From an uncultured Gemmatimonadales bacterium (lineage in GTDB: Bacteria > Gemmatimonadota > Gemmatimonadetes > Gemmatimonadales > GWC2-71-9): DNA of 64,000 nucleotides. Each line of letters starts with the position of its first letter. Within the stretch, counting starts at the first letter, position 1. The notes under the pieces were generated by a model. It saw only the letters and a program-made list of their open reading frames with translations. It was not told the DNA's origin and did not search any database. Shown piece after piece: positions 12,939 through 33,881 of the stretch. A program made the translations under genes and the position numbers. The stretch is taken from NCBI GenBank assembly GCA_963844035.1, contig CAWJMT010000004.1, positions 288,001 through 352,000 of the forward strand, given 5' to 3'.

Positions 12939-13856
12939 ATGCCTGCCAGCGTCACCGTACGGGTCCCGGGGTCGACGGCCAATCTGGGCTCCGGATTCGA
13001 TTGCGTCGGGATCGCGGTCGAGCGGTCGGTCCAGGTTGTCGCGCGCCTCGAGGCATCGGACACGCTGGTTCGGACCACGCGCCGCGGCTCGCTCGAAGGG
13101 CTCAGCGTGCCTGCGGATAGAGATCTGCTGTATCTTGGCTTCGTCGGCGCCTGCCGGGCCGCCGGCCGGGAAGCGCCGAAGGGACTCGTCTTTGAGGTCA
13201 GTTCGGACATTCCCGTCGCCCGTGGACTGGGCTCGTCCGCAGCCGCCGTCGTCGCCGGTGCCGTGGCGGCGCGCGCCCTGTGCGAGCTCAATCTCGACGA
13301 TGCAGCACTCGCCGCCGCCTGCGCCGATATTGAAGGACATGCGGACAACGTCGCACCGTCGGTGTGGGGCGGCGCCATGCTCGTGCTGAAAACCGCCGGC
13401 GGAGATCTGCTCTTTGCCCCCCTCGAGGTGCACGAGTCTCTGGTGCTGATCTTCGCGATTCCCGACTTCACCTTGTCCACCGAGCGGGCGCGGTCCGTGC
13501 TTCCCGCCACGGTGCCGCACCGCACCGCCGTGACGGCGGCGGCGCGCTCCGCCGCGCTCGTCCAGGGGCTGGCGAATGCGAACCCGGGCTTGCTCGCGTT
13601 GGGGCTCGACGACGTGCTCCACGTGCCGCACCGACGCGTGCTGATGCGCGGGTACGACGACGTGACCAAAGCCGCCCGGTCCGCCGGCGCCTACGGCGCC
13701 ACACTCTCGGGGTCGGGCTCGACAATCGTGGCGCTTGGGTCCGCGGCAACCGCCGCCGCGGTCGAAACCGCCATGGCCACCGCCTGGCGCGCGCACCGCG
13801 TGAGCGCCACGACGTTTCACATGGCCCGCCCGGCCTCAGGATACAAGGTCGCCTGA
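12939..13856 (+). CDS. thrB: Homoserine kinase
   Basis: PGSTANLGSGFD, IPVARGLGSSAAA, EGHADNV, LSGSGST. Confidence 0.95.
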   Translation: MPASVTVRVPGSTANLGSGFDCVGIAVERSVQVVARLEASDTLVRTTRRGSLEGLSVPADRDLLYLGFVGACRAAGREAPKGLVFEVSSDIPVARGLGSSAAAVVAGAVAARALCELNLDDAALAAACADIEGHADNVAPSVWGGAMLVLKTAGGDLLFAPLEVHESLVLIFAIPDFTLSTERARSVLPATVPHRTAVTAAARSAALVQGLANANPGLLALGLDDVLHVPHRRVLMRGYDDVTKAARSAGAYGATLSGSGSTIVALGSAATAAAVETAMATAWRAHRVSATTFHMARPASGYKVA

Positions 13857-16371
13857 TGGTCCGACCGGCCGGCCCTCCCCAGGTTCACAAGTTCGGCGGC
13901 GCATCACTCGCCGACAGCGCCGGCATCGCGCGCGTCGTCGCCATCATCGAGGCGCAACGGCCGGCGCCGCTGGTTATCGTCGTCTCGGCGCTGGCCGGGG
14001 TCACCGATGCGCTGCTCGAGATCGCATCCAACGCAGTGCGTGGCGAGGCCGACGCGGTTCGGACGAGCGCGGCCGCTCTGCACAAGCGCCATGCGACCGT
14101 GGCCCGGGGGTTGCTCCCGGACGGGAACCGCCGGCGTGACACATTGCGTGCGATCGACGAATCGTTCGCCGAGCTGGAACAGATCGCCGCCGGCCTGGCC
14201 ATCGTGCGGGAGCTGACGCCGCGCACCAACGACTATCTCGTCGCGCGCGGGGAGCGGTTGAGCGCCCGGCTCGTGTCGGCAGCGCTCGATGAGGCCGGGT
14301 GTCCGGTGGCCCTGGTCGATGCCCTGGAGGTCATCCGTTGCGACAGCAACTTCGGCAGCGCGTCGCCCGATCTGGCGCTGACCGACCGCAGCGCGCGGCG
14401 GGTGCTCGGCCCGCTGCTCAAGCGCGGCGTCGTGGCCGTCATACCGGGGTTCATCGCCGGTACTCCAGATGGACAGCTCGCGACCCTGGGACGCGGCGGG
14501 TCGGACCTGACGGCGACCCTGCTCGGGCGCGCGCTCGGGGCGCGTGAAGTGTCGCTGTGGAAGGACGTCCCCGGGATGCTCACCGCCGATCCTCGCATGG
14601 TGCCCGACGCCCGGGTCATCCCGCAGCTTCACCTGCGGGAGGCCGCCGAGCTGGCGTACTACGGCGCGAAGGTGCTGCACCCCCGCGCCCTGATTCCGCT
14701 GGCGCGCCGGAACCTCGCGATCCGCATCCGGCCGTTCGCCGACCCTGGAGCCCGTGGGACGGAGATCTCGCGCCGGCGCACGCTGCGCTCCCACCCGGTG
14801 AAGGCCATCTCGGCGGTGAGCGGCCAGGCCCTGCTCATGGTGACCGGCAACGGCATGTTGGGCGTGCCCGGAATCGCCGCCCGGACCTTCGCCGCGGTGC
14901 ACGAAGAGGGCATTTCGGTCTCGCTCATCAGTCAGGCGTCGTCGGAGCACTCGATCTGCTTCAGCGTCCCGGAGGCGAGCGCCGAGCGGGCGCGCAAGAG
15001 TCTGGAGCGGGCGCTCCGGGAAGAGATCGCACGCCGCCAGATCGACGGCGTGGAGGTCCGCCGCAAGATCGCCACCGTCGCGGTGGTCGGGCTGGGGATG
15101 GCGGGGACACCGGGGATCGCGGCCAAGACGTTCGCCGCGCTGTCGAGCGGCAAGATCAACGTCATCGCGATCGCCCAGGGGTCCTCGGAGCTGAACCTGT
15201 CCGTCGTGGTGGACGCCGGGGAAGTCGTGCGCGCGCAGCGGCTGGTCCACACGGCATTTCAGCTCGACAAGCTCGGCGGCGGCGGAGTGGCCGGAGCGGA
15301 GCGGACCGGACGTCGTGCTGCTCGGCTTCGGGCAAATCGGGCGCATCCTCGGCGCGATGATTGCCAAGCCGCGCCGGGGCCCGCGCCAGCTCAGGGTGGT
15401 CGCCGTCATCGATCGTTCGGGATTCGTGTTCGACGCGGAGGGACTCACGCCGCGCCGGCTCGCAGGGTTGGCCGCCGCCAAGGTCAAAGGGGCCACCATC
15501 GCGAAGGCCGCCGGCGCGCGGCGCGGTACGGCGACCGAGGCGGTGGATTTTGTGGCGCGCCACGCACTCTCGAACCCGGTGCTGGTGGACGTCACCGCCG
15601 ATGACACCAGCGCCACCTTGAAGCACGCGCTCGGCGCGGGGATGCATGTCGTCCTGGCCAACAAGCGCCCACTGACCACGCACCGCAAGCTGTACGACGA
15701 GCTGCGCGCGCTTGCGGACGAGCGCGGGCGCCGGCTGCTGCACGAGACCACCGTGGGCGCCGGCCTGCCGATCATCGACACGTTCTACAAGCTCGCCGAG
15801 TCGGGCGATCGCGTCAGCAAGATCGAGGGCTGTCCCTCCGGCACGCTCGGCTTCCTGTTCGGCGAGATGGGACGGGGGCGGCCGTTCTCCGACGCGCTGC
15901 GCCGCGCGATCGCGAAGGGCTACCCCGAGCCCGACCCGCGCGAAGATCTGTCGGGCACGGACGTCGCCCGCAAAGCCCTGATCCTCGGCCGGTTGCTCGG
16001 ATTTCCGGGCGAGATGGGCGACATCGAGGTCGAGTCGCTCGTGCCGCCGAAGGGGAAACGCCTGCCGCTGAAGGAGTTCCTGGCACGGCTCGAGGAGTAC
16101 GATGCCGAGTGGCAGACAGCGCGTGCAGCAGGCCCGCGAGCGCGGCGGCGTGCTGCGCTACCGCTGCACCGTGACCCCACGGCGCATTCGCGTAGGCCTC
16201 GTGGCGGTAGCTGCCACCAGCCCGCTCGCCTCGCTCAACGGCACCGACAACCAGTTCATTTTCACGACGGAGCGCTACAAGGCGAATCCGCTGGTGATCA
16301 CCGGACCGGGCGCCGGCCCTGCCGTCACGGCGGGCGGGATTTTGAACGACGTCCTGAAGCTCGCCGGCTGA
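13856..16371 (+). CDS. thrA: Bifunctional aspartokinase/homoserine dehydrogenase (frameshifts near 15305 and 16115)
   Basis: KFGGAS, TLGRGGSD, two ACT domains, GFGQIG, ETTVGAGLP, EPDPREDLSG, GPGAGPAVTA; TGATG coupling at both ends. Confidence 0.9.
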
Positions 16372-17679
16372 TGAGCGCCCCTCCCTCAGAACTCCGGCAC
16401 GCCAGCCTGCAGATCTGCGCGGCGTGCGGAGCGCAGCTGGCCGAGACCGATCGCCGGTCGCAGTGCCCGGAGTGCGGTGGACTGCTCGAGATCCGGCACG
16501 AACCGCCCAGTGTGACCGGGGCCGCGCTGCGCGCGCTGCTCGACACCCGTTCCGGCATCCGGCGGGGCGCGTTTGCGTCCGGCGTGTGGCGCTATCGCGA
16601 CCTCGTCCTGCCGAGCGTCACCGACGAGCAAGTCGTGACGTATCCCGAAGGAAACACACCGCTGCTCGATCGCCCGACGGTATCGGCGTGGGCCGGCGCG
16701 GGGAGCTTGCTGCTCAAGCACGAGGGACTCAATCCCACCGGTTCATTCAAGGACCGCGGGATGACGGTCGGCGTGACGCACGCGAGGCGCCTCGGCGTCA
16801 CCGCGGTCGCCTGCGCCTCGACGGGGAACACCGGCGCGTCGCTCGCCGCGTACGCCGCGCTCGCGGGGATCACGGCTCTCACGATCGTGCCGAAGGGCAA
16901 GGTCGCCCGCGGCAAGCTCACGCAGCTCTTGGCGTATGGCGCGCGCACGCTGGTGGTGCGGGGCGATTTCGATACCTGCCTGGAGCTGGCCTGGGAGGCG
17001 AACAAGGAGCTGGGAGTCTATCTCCTCAACTCGGTGAATCCATTTCGCCTCGAGGGGCAGAAGACCATCGTCCTGGAGCTGCTCCAGCAACTTGGGTGGG
17101 ACCCGCCCGACTGGATCCTCGTACCGGCGGGCAACCTCGGCAACACCGCCGCGTTCGGGAAGGCGCTGCGGGAAGCGCATGGCCTGGGGCTGATCGCGCG
17201 GATGCCGCGCATCGCGGCCGTGCAGGCCGCCGGCGCGGCGCCGTTCGCGCGCAGCTTTGAGGAGGGGTTCGCCCGGCAGGCACCGCGTGGAAGCGCACAC
17301 CGTCGCCACGGCCATCAGCATCGGCAACCCGGCGTCGTACGACCGGGCGGTCACGGCCATCCGCGAGACCAACGGCGTGGTCACCGCCGTGGGCGACGAC
17401 GAAATCCTGGAGGCGAAGGCGGTGGTGGATGCATCGGGGGCGGGCTGCGAGCCCGCGAGCGCGGCGAGCGTCGCCGGCGCGCGGCAGCTGATTCGCAAAG
17501 GGGTGATCCGGCCCTCCGACCGGCTGGTCGCGGTCCTCACCGGGCACATCCTCAAGGACCCCGACGCGGTCACCCGCTACCACGAGGAGACCACGCCACC
17601 GCTGCCGTACGCGAATCACACGATCGAAATCGATCCCAAGCTTTCGGAAATCGAACGCGTGCTGGCGCGCGGGCGCTGA
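16371..17679 (+). CDS. thrC: Threonine synthase (frameshift near 17275)
   Basis: N-terminal zinc ribbon, EGNTPL, NPTGSFKDRG, ASTGNTGAS, NSVNPFRLEGQKT, CEPASAAS, LTGHILKD. Confidence 0.93.
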
Positions 17680-19818: not shown

Positions 19819-20316
19819 TCAGGTTCCGGTCGCGCCCCCGATCACGGCACGCATCGAATCCACCACGGCGTGCACACTCCCAATGTGCCGCCACAGCAGG
19901 CGTCCGTCCTGCCCGACCACGAACGTCTCCGGTACGCCGATCAACTGAAACGCGTCTTCGACGCGCGCTTCCGGATCGTGCGCGACCGTGAACGTGAGCT
20001 TCTCCTCGTCGGCAAACCGCTGCACCCGCGAGCGGTCACCCGCATCCACACTCACAGCCACCACCTGGACGCCGCGCGACGCGAACTCCTTCTGAAGAGC
20101 GTTGAGGTCGGCCATCTCCTCGCGACAGGACGTACACCAGGTCGCCCACACGCTCAGCACCGTCACCCGGCCGGGGCCGCCCAGCCGCACGGTGTCACCC
20201 GCCAGGGTCGCGACGGCATACGCGCGAATCGGCTGGCCGACGGCCAGCGGACGGAATTCCCCACCACCGCCGCATGCCGTGGCGGCCAAAACCAACAGCG
20301 CGGTCCTCCGCGTCAC
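19819..20316 (-). CDS. TlpA/ResA-like thiol-disulfide oxidoreductase lipoprotein
   Basis: WATWCTSCREE, GVPETFVV, lipobox-like ATAC. Confidence 0.9.
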   Translation of the reverse strand: MTRRTALLVLAATACGGGGEFRPLAVGQPIRAYAVATLAGDTVRLGGPGRVTVLSVWATWCTSCREEMADLNALQKEFASRGVQVVAVSVDAGDRSRVQRFADEEKLTFTVAHDPEARVEDAFQLIGVPETFVVGQDGRLLWRHIGSVHAVVDSMRAVIGGATGT

Positions 20317-21593
20317 AGAATGCGCCCGCGGCGCACTACCACTTGGGCAGTGCCGACCGCCTTGAGACCCATGGGCATGCCTTTGGGCATCGTGGCTTTC
20401 ATCTCGTGCTTAGGCTTCGCGGTCGAGGCGCTCTGCTCCGACCACGCGAGCGTGATCGTGGAATCGGTCAGGGCCAGGACCGGGAACTGCGCGGCCCGGC
20501 CGGGCCCGCTCGCCGGCTCGCTCGGTCCGAAGGTCGTGCCGCCGTCGCGCGAGATGCGCACGACGACCCGCGGCACCTCCCTCGTGCCATCGTCCCAGGC
20601 CACCACAACTTCTCCGCGCGATCCGAGAGCCATTTGCACGTGGGCCGGCTGCGAGTACTTGGCGACGCCGAGCGCAACCGGCGGCGTGAAGGTGCTCCCG
20701 CCATCCGGCGAGCGAGCATAATAGACACCGGCGGCCCCCTCCTTACCGACCCACCAGGCAACGTGGAGCTGGTTCGAACGATCGATTTGGATGGACGGGC
20801 CGGCGTGCGGGCATCCGGGATACACCCAGTCATCGGCGTGGACCCGAGTGGGCGCCGTCCACGTCACCCCGCCGTCGCTCGAGCGCGCCACGACGATATC
20901 GCGCACGTCACCCGGGAGAACGGCGCGCCATGCGACAAACAGCGCCCCCTCCGGCGTGGTCGCGATCGCGGTGCGGCAGCAGGGACACGCCTCGCCTGTC
21001 CCGACCCGCCGGTTCGGCTCCCAGGTCTTGCCGCCGTCCCTCGAGCGGGTCAGAAACGGCGCGGCTTTGCCCTCGCGATCGTCCAGCCAGGAGATGTAGA
21101 GCGAGCCATCCGCCGCCGCATGCAGCGCGTGGAAGTTGTGCCTCCTGCCGAACGCTTCATCATCCGTGACGGTCACGGGCCTGCTCCACGTGCTCCCCCC
21201 ATCGATGGAGCGGACGTAGCGGAGGGCGGCGACGCCGTAGCGCTTCCCGGCGGCCAACCTGGGGACAGCGTAGATCGCGTTGAGCGCGCCGTCCGGGCCG
21301 TACGCCAGTTTGGGCGGCGACTCGCCGTGCGGCTCGACGGGACCCAGCGGATCGCGCAGCTCCACCGGGTCGGCCCCACCGACGGAGACGTACAGCCGAC
21401 CGTCGGTCCCGCTATCCGGGGCGGATACCCACGCTAAGGCCTGAGTCCCCGTGGCCGACACCGCAAACATCGGAGCGGTGCCGACCGGGGTAGCCGTGCC
21501 GACCTGCCCTTCCGCCGTGAAATGGACGGCGGGTCCACGGTTGCACCCGCCGACCACGACGATCACTGCGAGCACTGTCGCTCTGCGGCTCAT
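20313..21593 (-). CDS. BNR/Asp-box (sialidase-like) beta-propeller lipoprotein with CPCC and CPH motifs
   Basis: Repeated SxDGGxTW/F Asp-boxes; ACPCCRT, GCPHAGP; VGGC lipobox-like. Confidence 0.82.
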   Translation of the reverse strand: MSRRATVLAVIVVVGGCNRGPAVHFTAEGQVGTATPVGTAPMFAVSATGTQALAWVSAPDSGTDGRLYVSVGGADPVELRDPLGPVEPHGESPPKLAYGPDGALNAIYAVPRLAAGKRYGVAALRYVRSIDGGSTWSRPVTVTDDEAFGRRHNFHALHAAADGSLYISWLDDREGKAAPFLTRSRDGGKTWEPNRRVGTGEACPCCRTAIATTPEGALFVAWRAVLPGDVRDIVVARSSDGGVTWTAPTRVHADDWVYPGCPHAGPSIQIDRSNQLHVAWWVGKEGAAGVYYARSPDGGSTFTPPVALGVAKYSQPAHVQMALGSRGEVVVAWDDGTREVPRVVVRISRDGGTTFGPSEPASGPGRAAQFPVLALTDSTITLAWSEQSASTAKPKHEMKATMPKGMPMGLKAVGTAQVVVRRGRIL

Positions 21594-21606
21594 GCGTCCC
21601 CGCTTC

Positions 21607-24049
21607 CTAGAATTGCCACCGGAGACCTGCCGTAAATGCACGCCCCATTCCCAGCGTCTGGGACGCGGCGTTGGTCGTCGCATTGTCCGAATATTGGACG
21701 TCGGTCAGGTTCACGCCCGCGGCATACACATTGAGCTGCCTGCCGAGCTGATACGATGTACTGAAATTGATCAACGTGAAGGCCGGCTGTGGAATGGTGT
21801 GGTTCACGTCGAGATACATCGAGCCGGAGTGGCGCAGTCCGGCGTAGGTGCTCCACCGCGACGTGACGTTCCAGGTCACGCCGGCCGTGACAAGGTCCTG
21901 CGGTATGGCGCCGAGCTGCGCGTCGATCGGGATCGCCCGTGGTGGTGGCCGTGTAGTGACTGTCGGTGTAGGTGTAGGCCCCGTCGACGGTCAGGAACCG
22001 CGTCAGGTGGAAGGCGCCGACCAGCTCGACTCCGACAGCCTTCGCGTCCTGCCCGTTGGTGTTGAAATTCACGGTGGCCGGGCAGTTCGAGAGTGTCGGG
22101 CCGCAGATCGCGATCACCGCGGGCGGTGCCGCCGCCGCATTCGGTACCCGGTATGACGTGATCAGCGCCTTCGTGTTGCCCTGAAACACCGTGGCGCCGA
22201 AGCCGGACGGCCCGCGTTGTGAAATCCACTCCAAATTCGCCACCGGTCAGGGTCGAGGGCGACAGCTCCGGATTGGCGATGGTGATGGAGGTCGCCGACG
22301 AGAACGACCGGTACAGGTTATTGAGACCCGGCGCGCGGAACGACTTGTACACCGCGCCCCGCGCCGAGAAATGCTGGTTGAAGTCGTAGCGCACCGACAG
22401 GTTGGGATCGAACGTCCCCAGGTGTGAGTCGGCAACCGGTCCCCCGGTGGTCGGGTCGGGCGCGCCGTTCGAGTACCTGGTCATCTCGGCGACTCCATGC
22501 TGGTTCACCCAATAGTCGTACCGGACGCTCATGGTGACTGACGAGCGGTCTGACCGGAACGACCCTGACCTGGCTGAACACCCCGACGAACTGCTGTTGC
22601 CCCTTGCCGAAGTTGATGCGGTTGATCGTTGTCGACGAGCCATCGGTGGTGGTTGGCCTGATTGTAGGTCCAGGCCGAGTCCTGGCCGCCGACCATCCGG
22701 TAGTCGACGCCCCCCTGAACGCTCGCCAGAAAGCCCTTGAAATCCGCGGACGAGATGATCGCCGAGCCTCCCAGCTCGTGGTACGGGCTCTCGTCGTGCG
22801 AGTTCGCGTATTGGACCAGCGGCGCCGTGACCGACGTCGTGTTGCAGTTGGTCGCGGATTCGAGGTAACACGCTGCTCCGTTGCTCTTGTCGAAGTTCAG
22901 GTACTGCGTCCACAGCCTGAGGTCCACGCGGGAACCCCCGCCGAAGACCTTACTCAGCCCGGCTGCCGCATCCGGGCTCTTCTGCAAGTTTGTCCCGTAC
23001 TCATACCCACCGATGAGCTCGTTCTGCTGATGGTACCCCGCGCGCAGGAAGGCGTTGACGTCCGGGGTTGGCGCGTAGTACGCCGCGACCTGCACGTTCC
23101 CGTTGGTGGCCGACGACGCCGACTTGCCGGGCACCGTGTTGAGATACGCTGAAGGAGTCGTCTGGTAGCCGTCGGTGCTGAGCACGTCACCGGAGACCCG
23201 AAGCGACAAACTCTTGCTCGCCACGAAGTTCTTCGACAGCGCCGGGGTGGTCGTGCTCAGCGAGCCGTAGTTCACGTTGACCTCGCCGCCGTTGTCAATC
23301 GGTTTCTTGGTGATGATGTTGATGACGCCTCCCATGGCGAGGTTGCCCCAGAGGCTCGAATTGCCACCGCGAACCACTTCGACACGCTCGATCGCCGAGA
23401 GCGGCACCTTGAACCACTGCGTCGTGCCAAAGAAGGGATCGTGGACGGGAATCCCGTCCACGAGAACGAGCACCGAGCTATTGCTGGTCAGCCCGCGCAG
23501 CTTCGTCTGGTGGCCGGTGGGATCGGTCGTGTAGAACGGCGCCCCGGACATGTTCATGCCCGACACCCCGCGCAGCAGCTGGTCGAGCGTCTGTGCCGGG
23601 GACTTTTGCAGATCCTCATGGTCGATTACGGTCGCGTGCAACGGCATGCGCTCGAGCGTCGTCGTGGTGCGTGTGGCCGACACGACGACCGTCCCCAGCT
23701 GCACCGCCCCCAACGCAAAGTCGGCCCGGACGCTCCCGCCGGCTGGGACGGTCACGGTGAGCCGCACCGGCTCACGGCCGACATAGCGAGCGACGACGAC
23801 CGCCGGGCCCGCCGGCACCTCGGTGATCCGGAAGGCGCCGTGCGCATCGGTCACCGCGGAGCGGCTGGTCCCTTCAACCAGCACCCTCACCCCGGCCAGC
23901 GGCTCACCGGTACCGTCGATGACCTTCCCCTCGACCGAGCCGACGGTCTGCGTGGGCACGGTCACGCTGTCCTGGGCGCGCGCGTTGCCGGCCAGCATCG
24001 CGCATGCCAAGAGCGCGAGTGACACATGATCCTCGACCCACTGCCGCAT
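21607..24049 (-). CDS. TonB-dependent receptor with N-terminal carboxypeptidase-regulatory-like domain (several frameshifts 21900-22650)
   Basis: Signal peptide, VVVSATR, LVLVDGIP, IERVEVVRG, GGVINIIT, SFRAP, NPEL, C-terminal GLRWQF. Confidence 0.88.
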
Positions 24050-24165
24050 GCAAGCATCCCCCACCGAGAGTGTTGGTGACTGATGGATCGTGAATTGCCG
24101 GGTGACAGCCGCGACGAGGCGGCGGTCGAGAATCCCCGACTACTCAGGAACGACTGTTGGGAGGG

Positions 24166-24526
24166 CTAGGCTCGAGGAGGCGGAGTTGCGAACTCGGGTG
24201 TGGCGGACAACAGCGGCACTGAGGACATCGACATGCACGTCTACGACAACGAAATCAATGGCAGGAGTCGCCGGCAATTGCGGCAGCACGCAGGCGGCCA
24301 CCAGGAGATCCGGCATCCCGCAATGCTCCGGGGCCGAGATCTTGGCTCCGGGTGTGTGATGCCCTGTCTGGCGATGCTCGGCTCCCATGGCGTGGTGCTC
24401 ATGGGTCGGCATCTCGGTCCCCATCAGGCAGTATGCCGCGCATGACACCGCGTTCGCGGTGGCTACGGGCATCCAAGCCAGAAGGAGGAACAGGCCGCCA
24501 GCGCGGCGCAGCAGGGGGCGAGTCAT
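24166..24526 (-). CDS. DUF2946/CutF/CruR-like uORF: signal peptide, CAAYC, His/Met-rich segment, C-terminal PEFATPPPRA* after a probable indel near 24210
   Basis: ORF 24526-24140 as assembled; alternate frame ttg tcc gcc aca ccc gag ttc gca act ccg cct cct cga gcc tag ends at 24166; lies about 115 nt before the TBDR start. Confidence 0.65.
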
Positions 24527-24594
24527 TGGATTAGTCAGCGTCCGATATTACCCCAAGCGCACGTCGAAGGGCAAGCCGGAGCGCTCGCATGACG

Positions 24595-26663
24595 CTACAG
24601 GCCCCAGCCCAGCCCGATTCGCACCTGGCGGGGCTCGACCGGGTGAAAATGGATATCGTCAACGCCGGCCGCCGGTTCACCGTCGAGGCGGGACGTATAG
24701 TAGTAGGCGATGTCGTTCGCGACCTGGTCGAAGATGTTCAATACCGATACGTGGATTCGCAGCCCGCGCACCGCATATCCCACCTCGCCGTTGACGAGGT
24801 TCGTCGGTGTCGCGCGGACGCTGTTGTCCTCGATCAGCGGATACGTTCCGAAGTGTCGCAGCCGAAGCGACGCGAACATGCCGCGCGGCGCCGAACTCCA
24901 GGTGATTCCCGATGCCACGACATTCTCGAGGCGCCCGGGAATGTGATCCTCGTTCGCCGGACACACCGCTAAACCGCGCCTGGGCAAACGACACGTCCGC
25001 GTCGAGCGCCAGCTGCGGAATCGGGCGGTAGAAGTTCGCCCACGTCACCCCACGGCGCCGGCTGGCGGACGCGGGCTCCGTCGTCCCACCGTCCCCGATG
25101 AACAGCAACTCGCTGTCGAGATTCAGAGCCCAAACCGAAAGCGTGGAATGCCAGCCCCGGCGAGGCGTAGCCCGGATGCCGATCTCGGCACCATGCGAGC
25201 GCACCAGCGGATCAACCCGCGGCGCCGGCATGCCCGTGCTGGGATCGATCGTGATAGTCGTCCCGCGGGCGTCGTTGCTGTGAAACCCGAGTCCACCGCT
25301 CACGATACACCTCGGCCGCGGGGGACGGGGTGAAGATCAACGAGGCCTTGGGGCTCACGATGCCGGCGTTGCGATGCCCGGAGTTGACGGCGAGGTCGCT
25401 CGCTACGTCGAAGGAGTACCCGTCACCACGAACTCCCAAGCACGGTGCGGAACCACGGCCGCCATCGCGACGTCGCCTGGACAAACAGGCCGACGGCCGA
25501 CTCCCGGACCTCGTCCTCCCGCACGGTGCCCGACCGCACTCTGGCTACCGTGCGGTACAGGCCGACCGGGCTGAGGATGTCGTAACGAGTTTGCAGCCCA
25601 ACAGTCAGACACATGTGACGCACCGAGCGCGTCCACCTGCTGCGTCTGCGTGGCTTTCCCGCCGAGTACCAGGCGACTCTCGCGCTGATTGAACTGGTCG
25701 CCGCTCGTCGTGTCGCTCAGCCGGTACTCGAAGTTCGAGAAGAGGCTGAGGTCGGATCGAATGCCGAACAGCTGGACCTGCTGCAGCGACCGCGCGCCAC
25801 GTGTGGCTCCACGAGCCCGAGAGACTGTAGCGCCCCGTACTACCGCCGTCCGTGGGGTCGACGTGCCCGAACCGGCTGATCAAGCCGCCTTCGACCGCCC
25901 GCAAGGGGATCTGATCGGTCGCATTCCATTGGTTGTGGTACGCCATGCCAAGGATCGAGAACTGCGACGATCCCCGTTCCCACGAGTAGCGGGTGACCCC
26001 ACTCAGCTTGCGCAGCTGCTCGGGGATCTCCCAAGGACCGTTGTAGCCCTTCACCTCGCCGGCAACCAGCAGATCGCCGCCTCCCGCCCGCGCCGACGCG
26101 CCCGCCGCAAGGCGCGCCATCCCGTTCTCCCCGACTGTCGTGGTGGCGAAGGGCCGGCTCAGCAAACGGGCCAGGTGGTACTCGGCGGCGCCGGCGCTTC
26201 CGAAATCTCCAACCTCGGCGTGATACACACCGAGCCGATAGTCGAGATAGTCCACCAACTCGGGGATGAGAAAGTTCAGATCGGTGTAGCCCTGGCCATG
26301 GGCGTGCGTCGGCATGTTCAGGGGCATGCCGTCGAGCGTCGTCTGGAAGTCGGTGCCGTGATCGAGATTGAACCCGCGCACGAAGTACTGGTTGGCTTTG
26401 CCGTCCCCGGAGTGCTGCGTGACGATCACGCCGGGCACGGTCTCCTGCAGCTCTCCCTCGCGAGCGATCGGTCGCAGCCGGAGGTCGGCGGCTCCCACTC
26501 GTCCTTCCGACGCGGTCGCGGCGGTGCCGATGAGGTTGTCGGAGCGCCCCGTCACGACAACCGCTGGAAGCACGACCGTCTTGGCGGAGTCCTCCTGGGA
26601 GCGCGCCGGGACGGCCGCGAGGGTGCTGGCGGCAGCGGCGATGAGACAGCAGCGGCGGATCAT
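24595..26663 (-). CDS. TonB-dependent receptor, QHSGxGKANQY family (multiple frameshifts)
   Basis: TQHSGDGKANQYFVRGFNLDHGTDF, HAHGQGYTDLN, GFHSNDARG, DIHFHPVEPR. Confidence 0.88.
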
Positions 26664-26722
26664 GACACGCAAATTGCCTCATGAGGCGTCAATGTGGAAC
26701 GGGACCGAACCGGCGGCCTCCG

Positions 26723-26731
26723 TGCTATAAT
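26723..26731 (+). promoter_or_regulatory. Extended -10 promoter of the sco-ctaG-cusF operon (near-leaderless)
   Basis: TGcTATAAT ending 9 nt before GTG 26741. Confidence 0.55.
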
Positions 26732-26740
26732 TCCGAACCT

Positions 26741-27382
26741 GTGTTCCATCATCGAGCGATTCTCTCCCTGTGCGCAATGGCCGTTCTCGGGTCGGCCTGC
26801 CGAGGCACGACCACCAAGGTCGTGCGGGCGGGTGAATACAAGGGCGACGTCATCGTCCAACCGATCCCCGCACCCGATTTCACCCTCACTACCACCGACG
26901 GCCAGCCCTACCACTTCAGGCAGGAAACGAACGGCATGCTCGGCCTGCTGTTCTTCGGCTACACCCACTGCCCGGACATCTGCCCGGTGCACATGGCCAA
27001 CCTGGCGGCCGTGCTGCGGCGGCTACCCACCGAAGTTTCCCGCAAGGTGAAGGTGGTGTTCGTCACAGTGGACCCGGCGCGCGACACGCCGCAGGAGCTG
27101 CGCGCCTGGCTCGACAACTTCGATCGCTCGTTCGTAGGCCTGCGGGGCCCGCTCGACCAGGTGAACAAGATCCAGAACGACTTCAAAATGCCCGCCACCG
27201 TGTTCGAGAAGCTTCCCGACGGCGGCTACGCGGTCGGGCACGGGGCCCCGGTGATCGCGGTGATCGCCGACTCGGCGCGCGTTTTCTATCCCTTCGGCAT
27301 CCGGCAGGAGGATTGGCTGCACGACCTGCCGAAGCTCGTCGCGACCGTCCCCGTCCCCAGCGCGCGGGGGGGCGCCGACTGA
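26741..27382 (+). CDS. SCO1/SenC copper chaperone lipoprotein
   Basis: FFGYTHCPDICP, TVDPARDT, YAVGH. Confidence 0.92.
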   Translation: MFHHRAILSLCAMAVLGSACRGTTTKVVRAGEYKGDVIVQPIPAPDFTLTTTDGQPYHFRQETNGMLGLLFFGYTHCPDICPVHMANLAAVLRRLPTEVSRKVKVVFVTVDPARDTPQELRAWLDNFDRSFVGLRGPLDQVNKIQNDFKMPATVFEKLPDGGYAVGHGAPVIAVIADSARVFYPFGIRQEDWLHDLPKLVATVPVPSARGGAD

Positions 27383-28224
27383 TGCAGTGGTGGTGTTCGG
27401 CGCAGGGAGTGCCGTGGACCTGGGAGTGGCGTCCCTACCTGGGCGTGTGGCTGCTGGTTGCGCTGATCGCCATGGCCTACCGGCGCACCTATCGGGCCAT
27501 CCCGGCCCCCGCCGATCCCGACGCCCGCAAACTGCGCCAATGGCGCGCGGCGGCGGCCGCGTCGGGGATCGCAGGGGTATGGCTGCTGCTCGACTGGCCG
27601 ATCGGCGCACTCGGGGCCGGTTACCTCGCGAGCGTGCACACCGTGCAATTCATCGGTCTCGGCCTGGCGTTGCCGCCGTTGCTGCTGTTCGGGCTTCCCG
27701 AAGGCTGGGAAGCGACGCGCGGGGCCCGATTGAGCTCGATCCTCTCGCAGGTGACGAACCCCCTCACCGCAATCGTCGGATTCACCGTCATCGTGTTCCT
27801 CACCCACCTGCCACCGATCGTGGACGCCTTGATGGTGACGCAGGTCGGCTCGTTTGTCCTCGATCTCGCGTGGCTGGTCGGCGGCCTCGCGTTTTGGTGG
27901 CCCGTCGTGCGGCGCTGGCCGCAGCCGGCGCTGGGGCCGGCAGCGCGGCTCGCGTATGTGCTCGCAGGCACCGCGGCGCGGATGGGGATCGGCATGTTCA
28001 TGGGCCTGGCACCGTTCCCGCTCAATCGCGTGTTCGAGCTTGCGCCGCCGATCAACGGGATCGATGCGTTCGAGGACCAGCAGCGCGCCGGCGGGCTGAT
28101 GATGTTCGGCGACGTCCTCGTGGGCCTCGCCGGCGTCGCGATCCTCATCTACATCTGGCAACGCGACGAGCATGAGCGGCTGGCGAAGGCAGCGAGGGAT
28201 ACGGTCGGTCGTGAGGTAGTCTGA
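27382..28224 (+). CDS. Cytochrome c oxidase caa3 assembly factor (CtaG-like)
   Basis: DWPIG..G..YLASVHTVQ, HLP, FWWPV, DQQRAGGLM; TGATG coupling to sco. Confidence 0.82.
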   Translation: MQWWCSAQGVPWTWEWRPYLGVWLLVALIAMAYRRTYRAIPAPADPDARKLRQWRAAAAASGIAGVWLLLDWPIGALGAGYLASVHTVQFIGLGLALPPLLLFGLPEGWEATRGARLSSILSQVTNPLTAIVGFTVIVFLTHLPPIVDALMVTQVGSFVLDLAWLVGGLAFWWPVVRRWPQPALGPAARLAYVLAGTAARMGIGMFMGLAPFPLNRVFELAPPINGIDAFEDQQRAGGLMMFGDVLVGLAGVAILIYIWQRDEHERLAKAARDTVGREVV

Positions 28225-32836: not shown

Positions 32837-33881
32837 TCAGCCCCCGAAATACCCCTTCGCCACCAGCAGCTCCGCGTTCAGGATCGCCGCGCCCGCCGCG
32901 CCGCGGACGGTGTTGTGGCTCAGCGCCACGAAACGGTACCCGAGGACCTGGTCGGGGAAGATCCGCCCGACCGTGACGCTCATCCCGCCGCCGGCATCGC
33001 GGTCGAGCCGTGGCTGGGGCCGGTCCGGCTCGTCGCGCACGATGATCGGCCGCTCGGGAGCGGTGTGGAGCTTGAGCGCTTGCGGCACCCCGCTGAACTC
33101 TGCGAGCGCCGCGCGCACCCCGGCAACATCGGTCTTACGCCCGAGCTTCACTCTGATCGCGGCGATGTGCCCGTCCTGGACGTTCACGCGGTGGACCTGC
33201 GCACTCACGGGAAACGGCGCCGAGGCAATGGTGCCGTCTCGGACGGTCCCGAGAATCTTCTGTGTTTCGCGCTCGATTTTTTCCTCTTCGCTACCGATAT
33301 AGGGCACCACATTGTCGGTAATGTCCATCGCGGACACGCCGGGGTATCCCGCCCCGGAGATGGCCTGGAGCGTGGTCACCACGCAGGCTTCGACGCCGAA
33401 CTTCTGGTGCAGCGGCGCAAGCGCGAGCGCAATCCCGATCGCCGAGCAATTGGGATTCGTGACGATGAAGCCTTTTCCCTTGCGACCGTTCAAGATGCCC
33501 TAAGTGGTCGGGGTTCACCTCGGGGACCAGCAGCGGCACGCCTGCGTCCATGCGATACGACGAGGTGTTGCTGATCACCGGGTAGCCGGCCTCGGCGAAA
33601 CACCCTTCCATTTCCCGTCCGACCTCCGACGGCACGCTCGAGAAGATCACATCGCAGTCGAGCGGCGGCCGCGGCGGATGTACGGGCAGCGCGCGCGCGC
33701 TCTTGGGCATGTCCCCCGGGAGGCGCCACACACACGCTTCGGCGTAGGTCTTCCCCACCGACCGATCGGAGGCGGCGAGCGCCGTGACCACGAACTGCGG
33801 ATGCCCCTCGAGCATCTGCACGAAGCGCTGGCCCACGGTTCCTGTGGCCCCAAGGATGCCGACCCGAATCTTCTTGGTCAT
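32837..33881 (-). CDS. asd: Aspartate-semialdehyde dehydrogenase (frameshift near 33490)
   Basis: GATGTVGQ, VPEVNPDH, TNPNCS, QAISGAG, HNTVRGAAG. Confidence 0.95.

Follow-up and report, generated by a model that had tools for sequence, protein, structure and literature searches.

A CutF/CruR-like leader gene with a PPPRx ending at the head of a TonB-dependent receptor operon in Gemmatimonadales

The best-described systems with which the present locus can be compared are the leaders CutF and CruR. CutF of Rhodobacter capsulatus, encoded first in the cutFOG operon, has about 118 residues with a Sec-type signal, a CxxxC motif and a C-terminal PPPR plus one residue, and its stalled ribosome is described as opening a stem that masks the next gene's Shine-Dalgarno (SD) sequence (PMC8456105, PMC9973294, bioRxiv 10.1101/2025.02.05.636593). 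It ends in PEPEGPPPRL and is reported to need that ending (PMC8456105), and the stall, described as induced by copper, dependent on the signal and able to override EF-P, is placed on PPP (bioRxiv 10.1101/2025.02.05.636593). CruR of Bordetella pertussis (Bp2923, DUF2946/PF11162) precedes a TonB receptor across a long intergenic region, and the operons of its kind hold CopC, YcnI and AhpC-TSA genes, are of the uptake type and are described as repressed by copper (PMC9426467). Its CXXC and RAPP motifs are separated by 45 residues, copper control being lost at +5 (PMC9426467), and its stall occurs with the P and A sites occupied by its two proline codons (PMC12992588). A DUF2946 gene is also given as cofit with a copper receptor (bioRxiv 072470). 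CutF and CruR share a design and act in opposite directions, and the accounts of both call the effect of metal on the stall unresolved (bioRxiv 10.1101/2025.02.05.636593, PMC9426467). Among the wider set of arrest peptides, SecM (ahead of secA), MifM, VemP and the RAPP/RGPP peptides likewise have a stalled ribosome that opens a stem hiding the downstream SD (PMC10987492, PMC12992588), which for SecM frees the downstream start (PMC10987492), and RAPP/RGPP leaders are reported as common before TonB receptors (PMC12992588). A class of “CutF-like proteins” comprises 29 clusters with 5,334 proteins (PMC9973294); its main text and three supplements do not name Gemmatimonadota, and its protein list may include the family described here. 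Our literature search, which covered few subscription papers, found no paper on this family or on the proline codons of a metal leader serving as an anti-SD.

In the window, that is, the whole stretch of 64,000 nucleotides that was analysed, the leader lies on the reverse strand (-), as do the genes of the operon that it heads. The frame as assembled runs from 24526 to 24140 and encodes 128 amino acids, while intact copies in relatives have about 119 codons. The original prediction had described a signal-like N-terminus, a CAAYC, a His/Met-rich stretch and an HC, and all of these are present. Residues 1-26 (24449-24526) form a predicted Sec signal peptide with a basic n-region, a hydrophobic core and the sequence VATANA, the likely A-x-A cleavage site, which is invariant in 10 of 10 close homologues (alignment A2). 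The hydropathy peak in the signal region is 1.8-2.5 in all 12 close homologues, and a Sec-like n/h/c pattern with A-x-A can be seen by eye and by hydropathy, together with a near-invariant RR. This conserved RR had prompted us to consider a Tat signal, which was set aside since the pair does not appear to fit the Tat consensus. The CxxxC motif (C29 and C33; 24428-24442, with CAAYC from 24442) comes right after the predicted cleavage site and is followed by a His/Met-rich linker (24356-24412) that varies in length between the aligned sequences. Cys69 (24320-24322) is the best-conserved cysteine in the alignment of distant homologues. The predicted structure of the leader, which was based on a shallow alignment, consists of one helix (pLDDT 45) and is unstructured beyond this signal helix. 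A promoter-like site, TTGCCC-18-TAATAT (24545-24574), is located 18 nt ahead of the leader ATG, and a site 9-18 nt ahead of the start codon fits the same loose, self-made pattern in 6 of 11 upstream regions, that of the window being one of them. A strict scan of 23900-24800 identified 0 promoters and 0 terminators, and no SD was found ahead of the leader.

The original prediction had also placed the true end of the leader in the adjacent frame, with a stop at 24166, which requires one indel of a kind frequent in this assembly. Both parts were confirmed. The +1 frame holds LLSATPEFATPPPRA followed by the stop (24166-24213), and thus the ending FATPPPRA, with PPPRA and its stop at 24183-24166, which we predict to be a proline arrest motif. 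A profile of 10 intact close homologues (alignment A2, from which one slipped and one short sequence were omitted) matches the source genome in two pieces in two frames, at profile positions 1-106 (E 3.5e-51) and 99-119 (E 8e-4), and the extra base falls in the interval 24214-24226. A relative's short-read contig (X3) covers 24066-24213 at a depth of about 5 with 16 differences and no gaps. Its change at 24181 is silent in the PPPRA frame only, and its change at 24141 destroys the stop of the assembled frame, while the PPPRA stop is kept. In a by-eye alignment of 30 letters, the loose end of this contig is one base shorter than the window across 24214-24226 up to the next anchor; none of the relatives' contigs spans the frameshift with 31 letters on both sides, and no sequencing run contained more than 0.14 of the sequence words sought. 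In the assembly as a whole, there are 10 frame switches in 6825 aligned residues, a count in which one query re-covers part of the downstream receptor; 9 of the 10 are +1 and one is in asd, giving approximately one frameshift per 2 kb. The homologue endings, the two-frame profile match, the X3 contig and the error-prone assembly indicate that the break is most likely an assembly error. Oddities at the level of single reading frames need caution in this assembly because housekeeping genes are also split across frames, namely aspartokinase/homoserine dehydrogenase, threonine synthase and asd (13364-17679, 32837-33881), of which asd was identified by alignment and the others from their translations. 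Programmed +1 frameshifting was rejected since the homologues are encoded in one frame, including a leader before an orthologous receptor (L054). The assembled ending LPTVVPE, which the original prediction had named together with proline-poor homologues as the contrary outcome, was found in none of the 37 homologue rows.

The protein search with the assembled frame gave 12 matches among 55 candidates. The ending PPPR[AV] is present in 10 of these 12 close homologues, while one has a slip of its own inside the proline run, one stops short and none ends in LPTVVPE. Among 1.84 billion sequences, the family amounts to 25 representatives at 50% identity, of which 18 end in PPPRx, two in PPPR with a short extension, and five are cut or divergent. 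The RAPP ending of CruR was seen in 0 of 12 close and 0 of 25 distant homologues, the common ending being [TDP]PPPRx. Intact homologues have 114-125 amino acids, with PPPRx at the end. A clear match was found in one of 400 other sampled genomes of the phylum, where there was also one distant candidate. The loci number three in the genome collection, two of them from Gemmatimonadetes/Gemmatimonadales, and 13 in metagenomes. Judging from these searches, the family is small and of a Gemmatimonadota type. Six loci with E-values of 0.003-0.009 (L066-L071) were not counted as members, and of seven weak profile matches three were translated, with only L065 resembling a distant member. In the source genome, which is 84% complete, no other such leader was found by a pattern scan and no second copy by either leader profile. 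A DNA search of 61 relatives identified solely a 45-residue stump of the leader in one genome (L041:7153-7818, G002:C48), with a stop that overlaps the TlpA start; the remainder of the leader is absent there, as are the receptor and BNR genes. A 45-residue stump is likewise present in L049, L061 and L062; in the latter two, a leader-like Cys/His-rich frame (AHRCPMH) follows it, ahead of a receptor-PepSY operon.

The conservation of CxxxC and PPPR, which the original prediction had proposed as a check, holds for the second motif and only partly for the first. CxxxC is present in the window and in all 12 close homologues. However, among the 16 full-length distant homologues, 11 have CxxxC, one has CxxC and four have a single cysteine, so that the motif is incomplete in five, and its distance to the proline run varies from 76 to 85 residues. 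The column of Cys69, on the other hand, is nearly invariant. It precedes the final PPP by 46 residues (45 intervening) in all 18 distant homologues ending in PPPRx, although five of these print as 45 because of four prolines; the exception in this column is L048, which has an arginine. The alignment gaps sit in the His linker and none falls between this cysteine and PPP, and each homologue contains 3-10 histidines. The aligned sequences suggest that the best-kept cysteine is the lone one at fixed spacing, and that CxxxC drifts or decays.

The leader family falls within the length, sequence and position limits of the “CutF-like” class, with fewer than 150 residues, PP in the last 15 residues, a predicted signal-like N-terminus and a same-strand gene within 1000 nt (PMC9973294), the window leader agreeing in length and PP only once the +1 break is allowed for. 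The Cys/His metal-binding motif of that class is represented by CxxxC. CutF differs in that its CxxxC is about 41 residues from PPP, that its anti-SD is intergenic, whereas that of the leader is predicted to lie in its last codons, and that its downstream gene codes for a Tat-exported copper oxidase rather than a TonB receptor (PMC8456105, PMC9973294, bioRxiv 10.1101/2025.02.05.636593); the direction of control is probably opposite as well. The position as first gene before a TonB receptor or copper-gene operon and the long intergenic region are features of the CruR class (PMC9426467), whose spacing of 45 intervening residues is kept in the leader by a lone cysteine. The leader differs from CruR in having no RAPP and a single cysteine instead of a CXXC at that distance, and from the other arrest peptides in lacking R-[AG]-P-P and in that its input is probably a metal and not the pull of the translocon. 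The window leader scores 15.9 bits against the DUF2946 model (PF11162), below the cutoff of 23.7; weak matches were obtained for 4 of 10 close homologues (best E 0.014) and for five of the 18 distant ones, where the top score was 23.6 bits (E 9e-5), and no homologue exceeded the cutoff. The nearest named Atlas clusters are DUF2946, CzcI and DUF6660. The leader is CutF/CruR-like, but by score and ending it is not a member of DUF2946/CruR. NCBIfam has no name either for the leader or for the cargo of the receptor. Such leaders go unannotated, and in long-read assemblies a single-base error easily makes them disappear.

The leader is separated from the receptor by 116 nt (24050-24165), a region with no intrinsic terminator, whose predicted internal hairpins would place the end of the leader next to the start of the receptor. 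The receptor start region (24023-24062) has two candidates, ATG 24049 with a run of G upstream, and GTG 24025 preceded by GAGGA at 24034-24030; the latter agrees with the start of same-genus orthologues, and the former is kept in the contig ends of two relatives. The distance from the leader to the next same-strand gene is accordingly 116 or 140 nt in the window, and 84-191 nt in eight homologue loci. The receptor (21607-24049) contains carboxypeptidase-regulatory, plug and barrel domains and two cysteine pairs, and no copper-receptor model matched it above cutoff. It carries four single extra bases, near 22661, 22541, 22201 and 21932, and intact orthologues of 807-828 amino acids with 66-68% identity are found in four of six same-genus genomes (one cut by its contig). 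It is followed by a BNR/Asp-box repeat protein (20313-21683; the true start probably lies some 90 nt further downstream than listed) and a TlpA/ResA-type thioredoxin with an AhpC-TSA domain and CxxC (19819-20316). CPCC and CPH motifs in the BNR protein are kept in the G002 orthologue and are a possible metal or redox site.

Upstream of the leader, SCO1/SenC and CtaG, involved in caa3 assembly, are encoded on the forward strand (26681-28224, +), 2-3.7 kb away, and CtaG is also located upstream of the leader in L050, L052 and L053. The space between is occupied by a second TonB receptor directly upstream of the leader (24595-26672, -; at least three pieces, HAHGQGY plug motif), from which SCO1/SenC and CtaG diverge; no terminator was found between this receptor and the leader, and in the three loci just named no such receptor separates SCO/CtaG from the leader. 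The 16 homologue loci include several near-duplicates, three that end at a contig edge and three that hold the 45-residue stump. The leader is always first in its operon. All five downstream genes tested (L048, L050, L054, L055 and L056) contain a plug domain by Pfam, and that of L047 is 79% identical to that of L048, which gives six loci with a downstream TonB receptor as judged by Pfam or identity; in L059 and L060, too little sequence is present for the downstream gene to be called. In L054, an intact leader ending in FATPPPRA precedes a 65%-identical orthologue of the window receptor. The one homologue operon long enough to display known copper genes (L048) encodes a receptor, an unknown protein, CopC/CopD and DUF1775 (YcnI), which together with the SCO1/SenC and CtaG neighbours provides the copper context of the leader. 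The proposal of a CutF/CruR-like leader ahead of the TonB receptor-BNR-TlpA operon was thus borne out as a real, conserved gene with a PPPRx ending. Leader-headed operons also contain unannotated secreted proteins (L048:10771-15944, L073:9453-10763), among them a 231-residue protein, similar to one that comes immediately after a type-B leader in L094, and His/Met-rich proteins of 388-436 residues, the two in L048 being without a Pfam match.

The last codons of the leader provide a predicted link to the receptor. The Pro-Pro-Arg-Ala codons CCT CCT CGA GCC (24169-24180) form a predicted anti-SD for the site at 24034-24030, the anti-SD core being spelled by CCN-CCT-CCN. CCT serves as the middle proline codon in all 10 loci, the window among them (9/9 homologue loci), compared with 5.7% of 25,447 proline codons genome-wide, 27 of 183 codons in the middle of PPP in the same genome and 10 of 102 other proline codons in these leaders. 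Across 26 conserved columns, no other rare codon is invariant. In the window, the pairing probability of the leader tail with the SD of the GTG 24025 start is 0.98, falling to 0.02 after synonymous recoding. By partition-function folding with an automatic start rule, the probability is at least 0.5 in the window and in seven of eight homologues with enough downstream DNA (one exactly 0.50; L058 was dropped as too short), compared with 4 of 76 ordinary gene pairs of the source genome, where the control pairs stem from a crude gene caller on the frameshifted assembly and the related loci are not independent. Native pairing exceeds that of synonymously recoded leaders in nine of nine loci, with means of 0.75 and 0.13. 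Experiments are reported to show that long-range anti-SD pairing is real, and that selection acts against it in ordinary genes (PMC12697547), for which reason its retention in these leaders is meaningful.

The effect of a stalled ribosome is less uniform. A ribosome footprint cuts the predicted cost of opening the SD by at least 2.5 kcal/mol in six of eight homologues and in 6 of 76 controls. In the window, however, the gain is 1.6 kcal/mol with the GTG start or 1.2 with the ATG start, within the control range (90th percentile 1.7), and with ATG 24049 the pairing of the leader tail is just 0.18; the predicted switch of the window itself is thus weak in these models. In the closest homologue locus, L050, the pairing ranges from 0.01 to 0.48 by the start chosen, and a change of CCT to CCG raised it to 0.96. 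The same change left the pairing in L048 and L055 unaltered, where the SD partner is the Ala/stop codons and not the proline codons. Within an 18-nt window, only five of nine loci reach 0.5, and the folding energy of the whole region was no better than that of shuffled sequences (z 0.06).

The original prediction held that a PPPRA variant lets copper gate the TonB receptor-BNR-TlpA operon. The PPPRx leader gene stands, while the gating is modified in that a single cysteine holds the fixed spacing and the coupling is predicted to occur through SD masking by the last codons. That the leader acts in cis as an arrest leader at all we regard as very probable, and copper is the likely ligand. With no ribosome stalled there, the last codons would mask the receptor SD. 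By analogy with CutF, CruR and SecM, the ribosome would pause on the PPP of the leader and cover the anti-SD strand, which would free the receptor start as for SecM, while the leader peptide is likely to be exported. During the pause, Cys69 would sit at the tunnel exit, 46-48 residues away from the peptidyl-transferase centre, and there it may bind copper jointly with the CxxxC/His cluster, fold and pull the chain free, thereby releasing the stall. The import genes would then be on when copper is scarce, a direction suggested by the downstream uptake operons, as for CruR. For the complete chain, in which the PPPRA pause uncovers a receptor ribosome-binding site masked by the same proline codons and copper releases the pause and shuts the uptake operon off, we consider the case to be evenly balanced. 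The general class is already known, so that the surprise for a specialist is moderate; new are the lone ruler cysteine, the drifting CxxxC and the predicted anti-SD within coding sequence. The family mixes the tail of CutF with the spacing and operon type of CruR. With a single cysteine isolated at an exact spacing from the predicted stall, it offers a clean test of the idea that the chain is pulled free by metal-driven folding at the tunnel exit, and an anti-SD at the codon level lends itself to a simple test by synonymous mutation.

The input might be something other than copper, either Zn, Ni or Co bound by the His-rich linker, or the disulfide or export status of the envelope read through the cysteines. 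The histidine content would suit such metals, and in the sources concerned His-only CutF-like clusters are listed before Ni/Co genes (PMC9973294) and DUF2946 genes ahead of Zn/Cd/Co efflux genes in Caulobacter (PMC4176598), while the TlpA thioredoxin as the last gene and the cysteine pairs of the receptor would fit a redox input. We nevertheless think this rather unlikely, since the mixture of Cys, His and Met, the CopC/CopD/YcnI operon and the SCO/CtaG neighbours indicate copper, and the fixed cysteine spacing is that of the copper sensor CruR.

A switch in which the stall unmasks the SD could also run in the direction of CutF, with metal on the exported CxxxC prolonging the pause and turning the operon on. 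This is unlikely, given that the downstream genes (TonB receptors in six loci, CopC/CopD, YcnI) are of the uptake type that is described as copper-repressed in CruR operons (PMC9426467), that five of 16 distant homologues have an incomplete CxxxC, and that the Cys-to-Pro distance reported for CutF itself is about 41 (PMC8456105). Nonetheless, the PPPRA tail and the CxxxC are both CutF-like, the motif at 78-84 residues may be able to reach the periplasm during a stall, the signal region is strongly conserved and EF-P is present in the source genome.

Control might instead be exerted by Rho-dependent termination, by which CruR works when triggered by copper, SD pairing not being named in its report as far as that text goes (PMC9426467); in the leader, the pairing would then be secondary or merely lower basal translation. 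Rho is present in the source genome (full rho on C27), the intergenic regions of 84-191 nt are long like that of CruR, a C-rich stretch of 90 nt surrounds the stop in nine of nine loci (C35/G24 in the window), and the predicted opening gain of the window is small. The C excess, however, is in large part supplied by the proline codons, folding predictions give a structured intergenic region with no open rut site, and codon choice tracks SD complementarity, so that we find this account quite improbable, even if Rho termination and SD masking are non-exclusive routes. Another rho-like match, at G000:C5:151388-152299, covers profile positions 115-413 with a score of 397 bits, which is below cutoff, and is possibly a paralogue or else a frameshifted copy. 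Finally, it is very improbable that the peptide is a free secreted metal chaperone without a role in cis, since the homologues are always first in the operon, past the signal helix the model shows no structure (pLDDT 45 from a shallow alignment) and constraint on synonymous sites makes no sense for a trans-acting protein, or that the locus has truly decayed in this strain, where frameshifts do cluster (four in the 2.4-kb receptor against about one expected, in addition to those in the leader and upstream receptor) and most of the leader and receptor has been lost by deletion from one same-genus genome, but all receptor breaks are +1, like that in asd, and the receptor contains no internal stops or deletions.

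The preferred reading, a pause on PPPRA that would uncover the receptor SD and be released by copper, can be set beside a second, unrelated-looking type of leader. Same-genus orthologues of the whole receptor-BNR-TlpA operon in four genomes (L002-L005) are headed by a different leader ending in LPF[PA]LGPP. Receptor orthologues of 65-68% identity are thus preceded by the PPPRA leader in the window and L054, and by the LPF[PA]LGPP leader in L002, L003, L004 and L005, and from these sequences the leaders look like swappable cassettes. Among 301 family genomes, 47 gave a match to the second type. From the 30 loci obtained, one near-duplicate was dropped and 29 were examined; five were without the motif pattern and three without an automatic start. 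In 19 of the remaining 21 loci, the leader tail is predicted to pair with the receptor SD, and in 19 of 21 native pairing exceeds that after synonymous recoding. We tentatively suggest, while holding it to be doubtful as a whole, that there is a third wiring besides those of CutF and CruR, in which the leader would combine a CutF-type PPPRx stall, its own proline codons as the anti-SD, a lone ruler cysteine at 46 with a dispensable CxxxC and copper-repressed, purely translational control of uptake, and in which leaders would be interchangeable, one receptor orthologue being headed by either the PPPRx family or the Arg-less LPFxxGPP family. Tandem leaders also occur, with two in a row before a receptor on G003:C71:1390-2235 (L005), and on G003:C60:15284-16972 there are three leader-profile matches within 1.7 kb.
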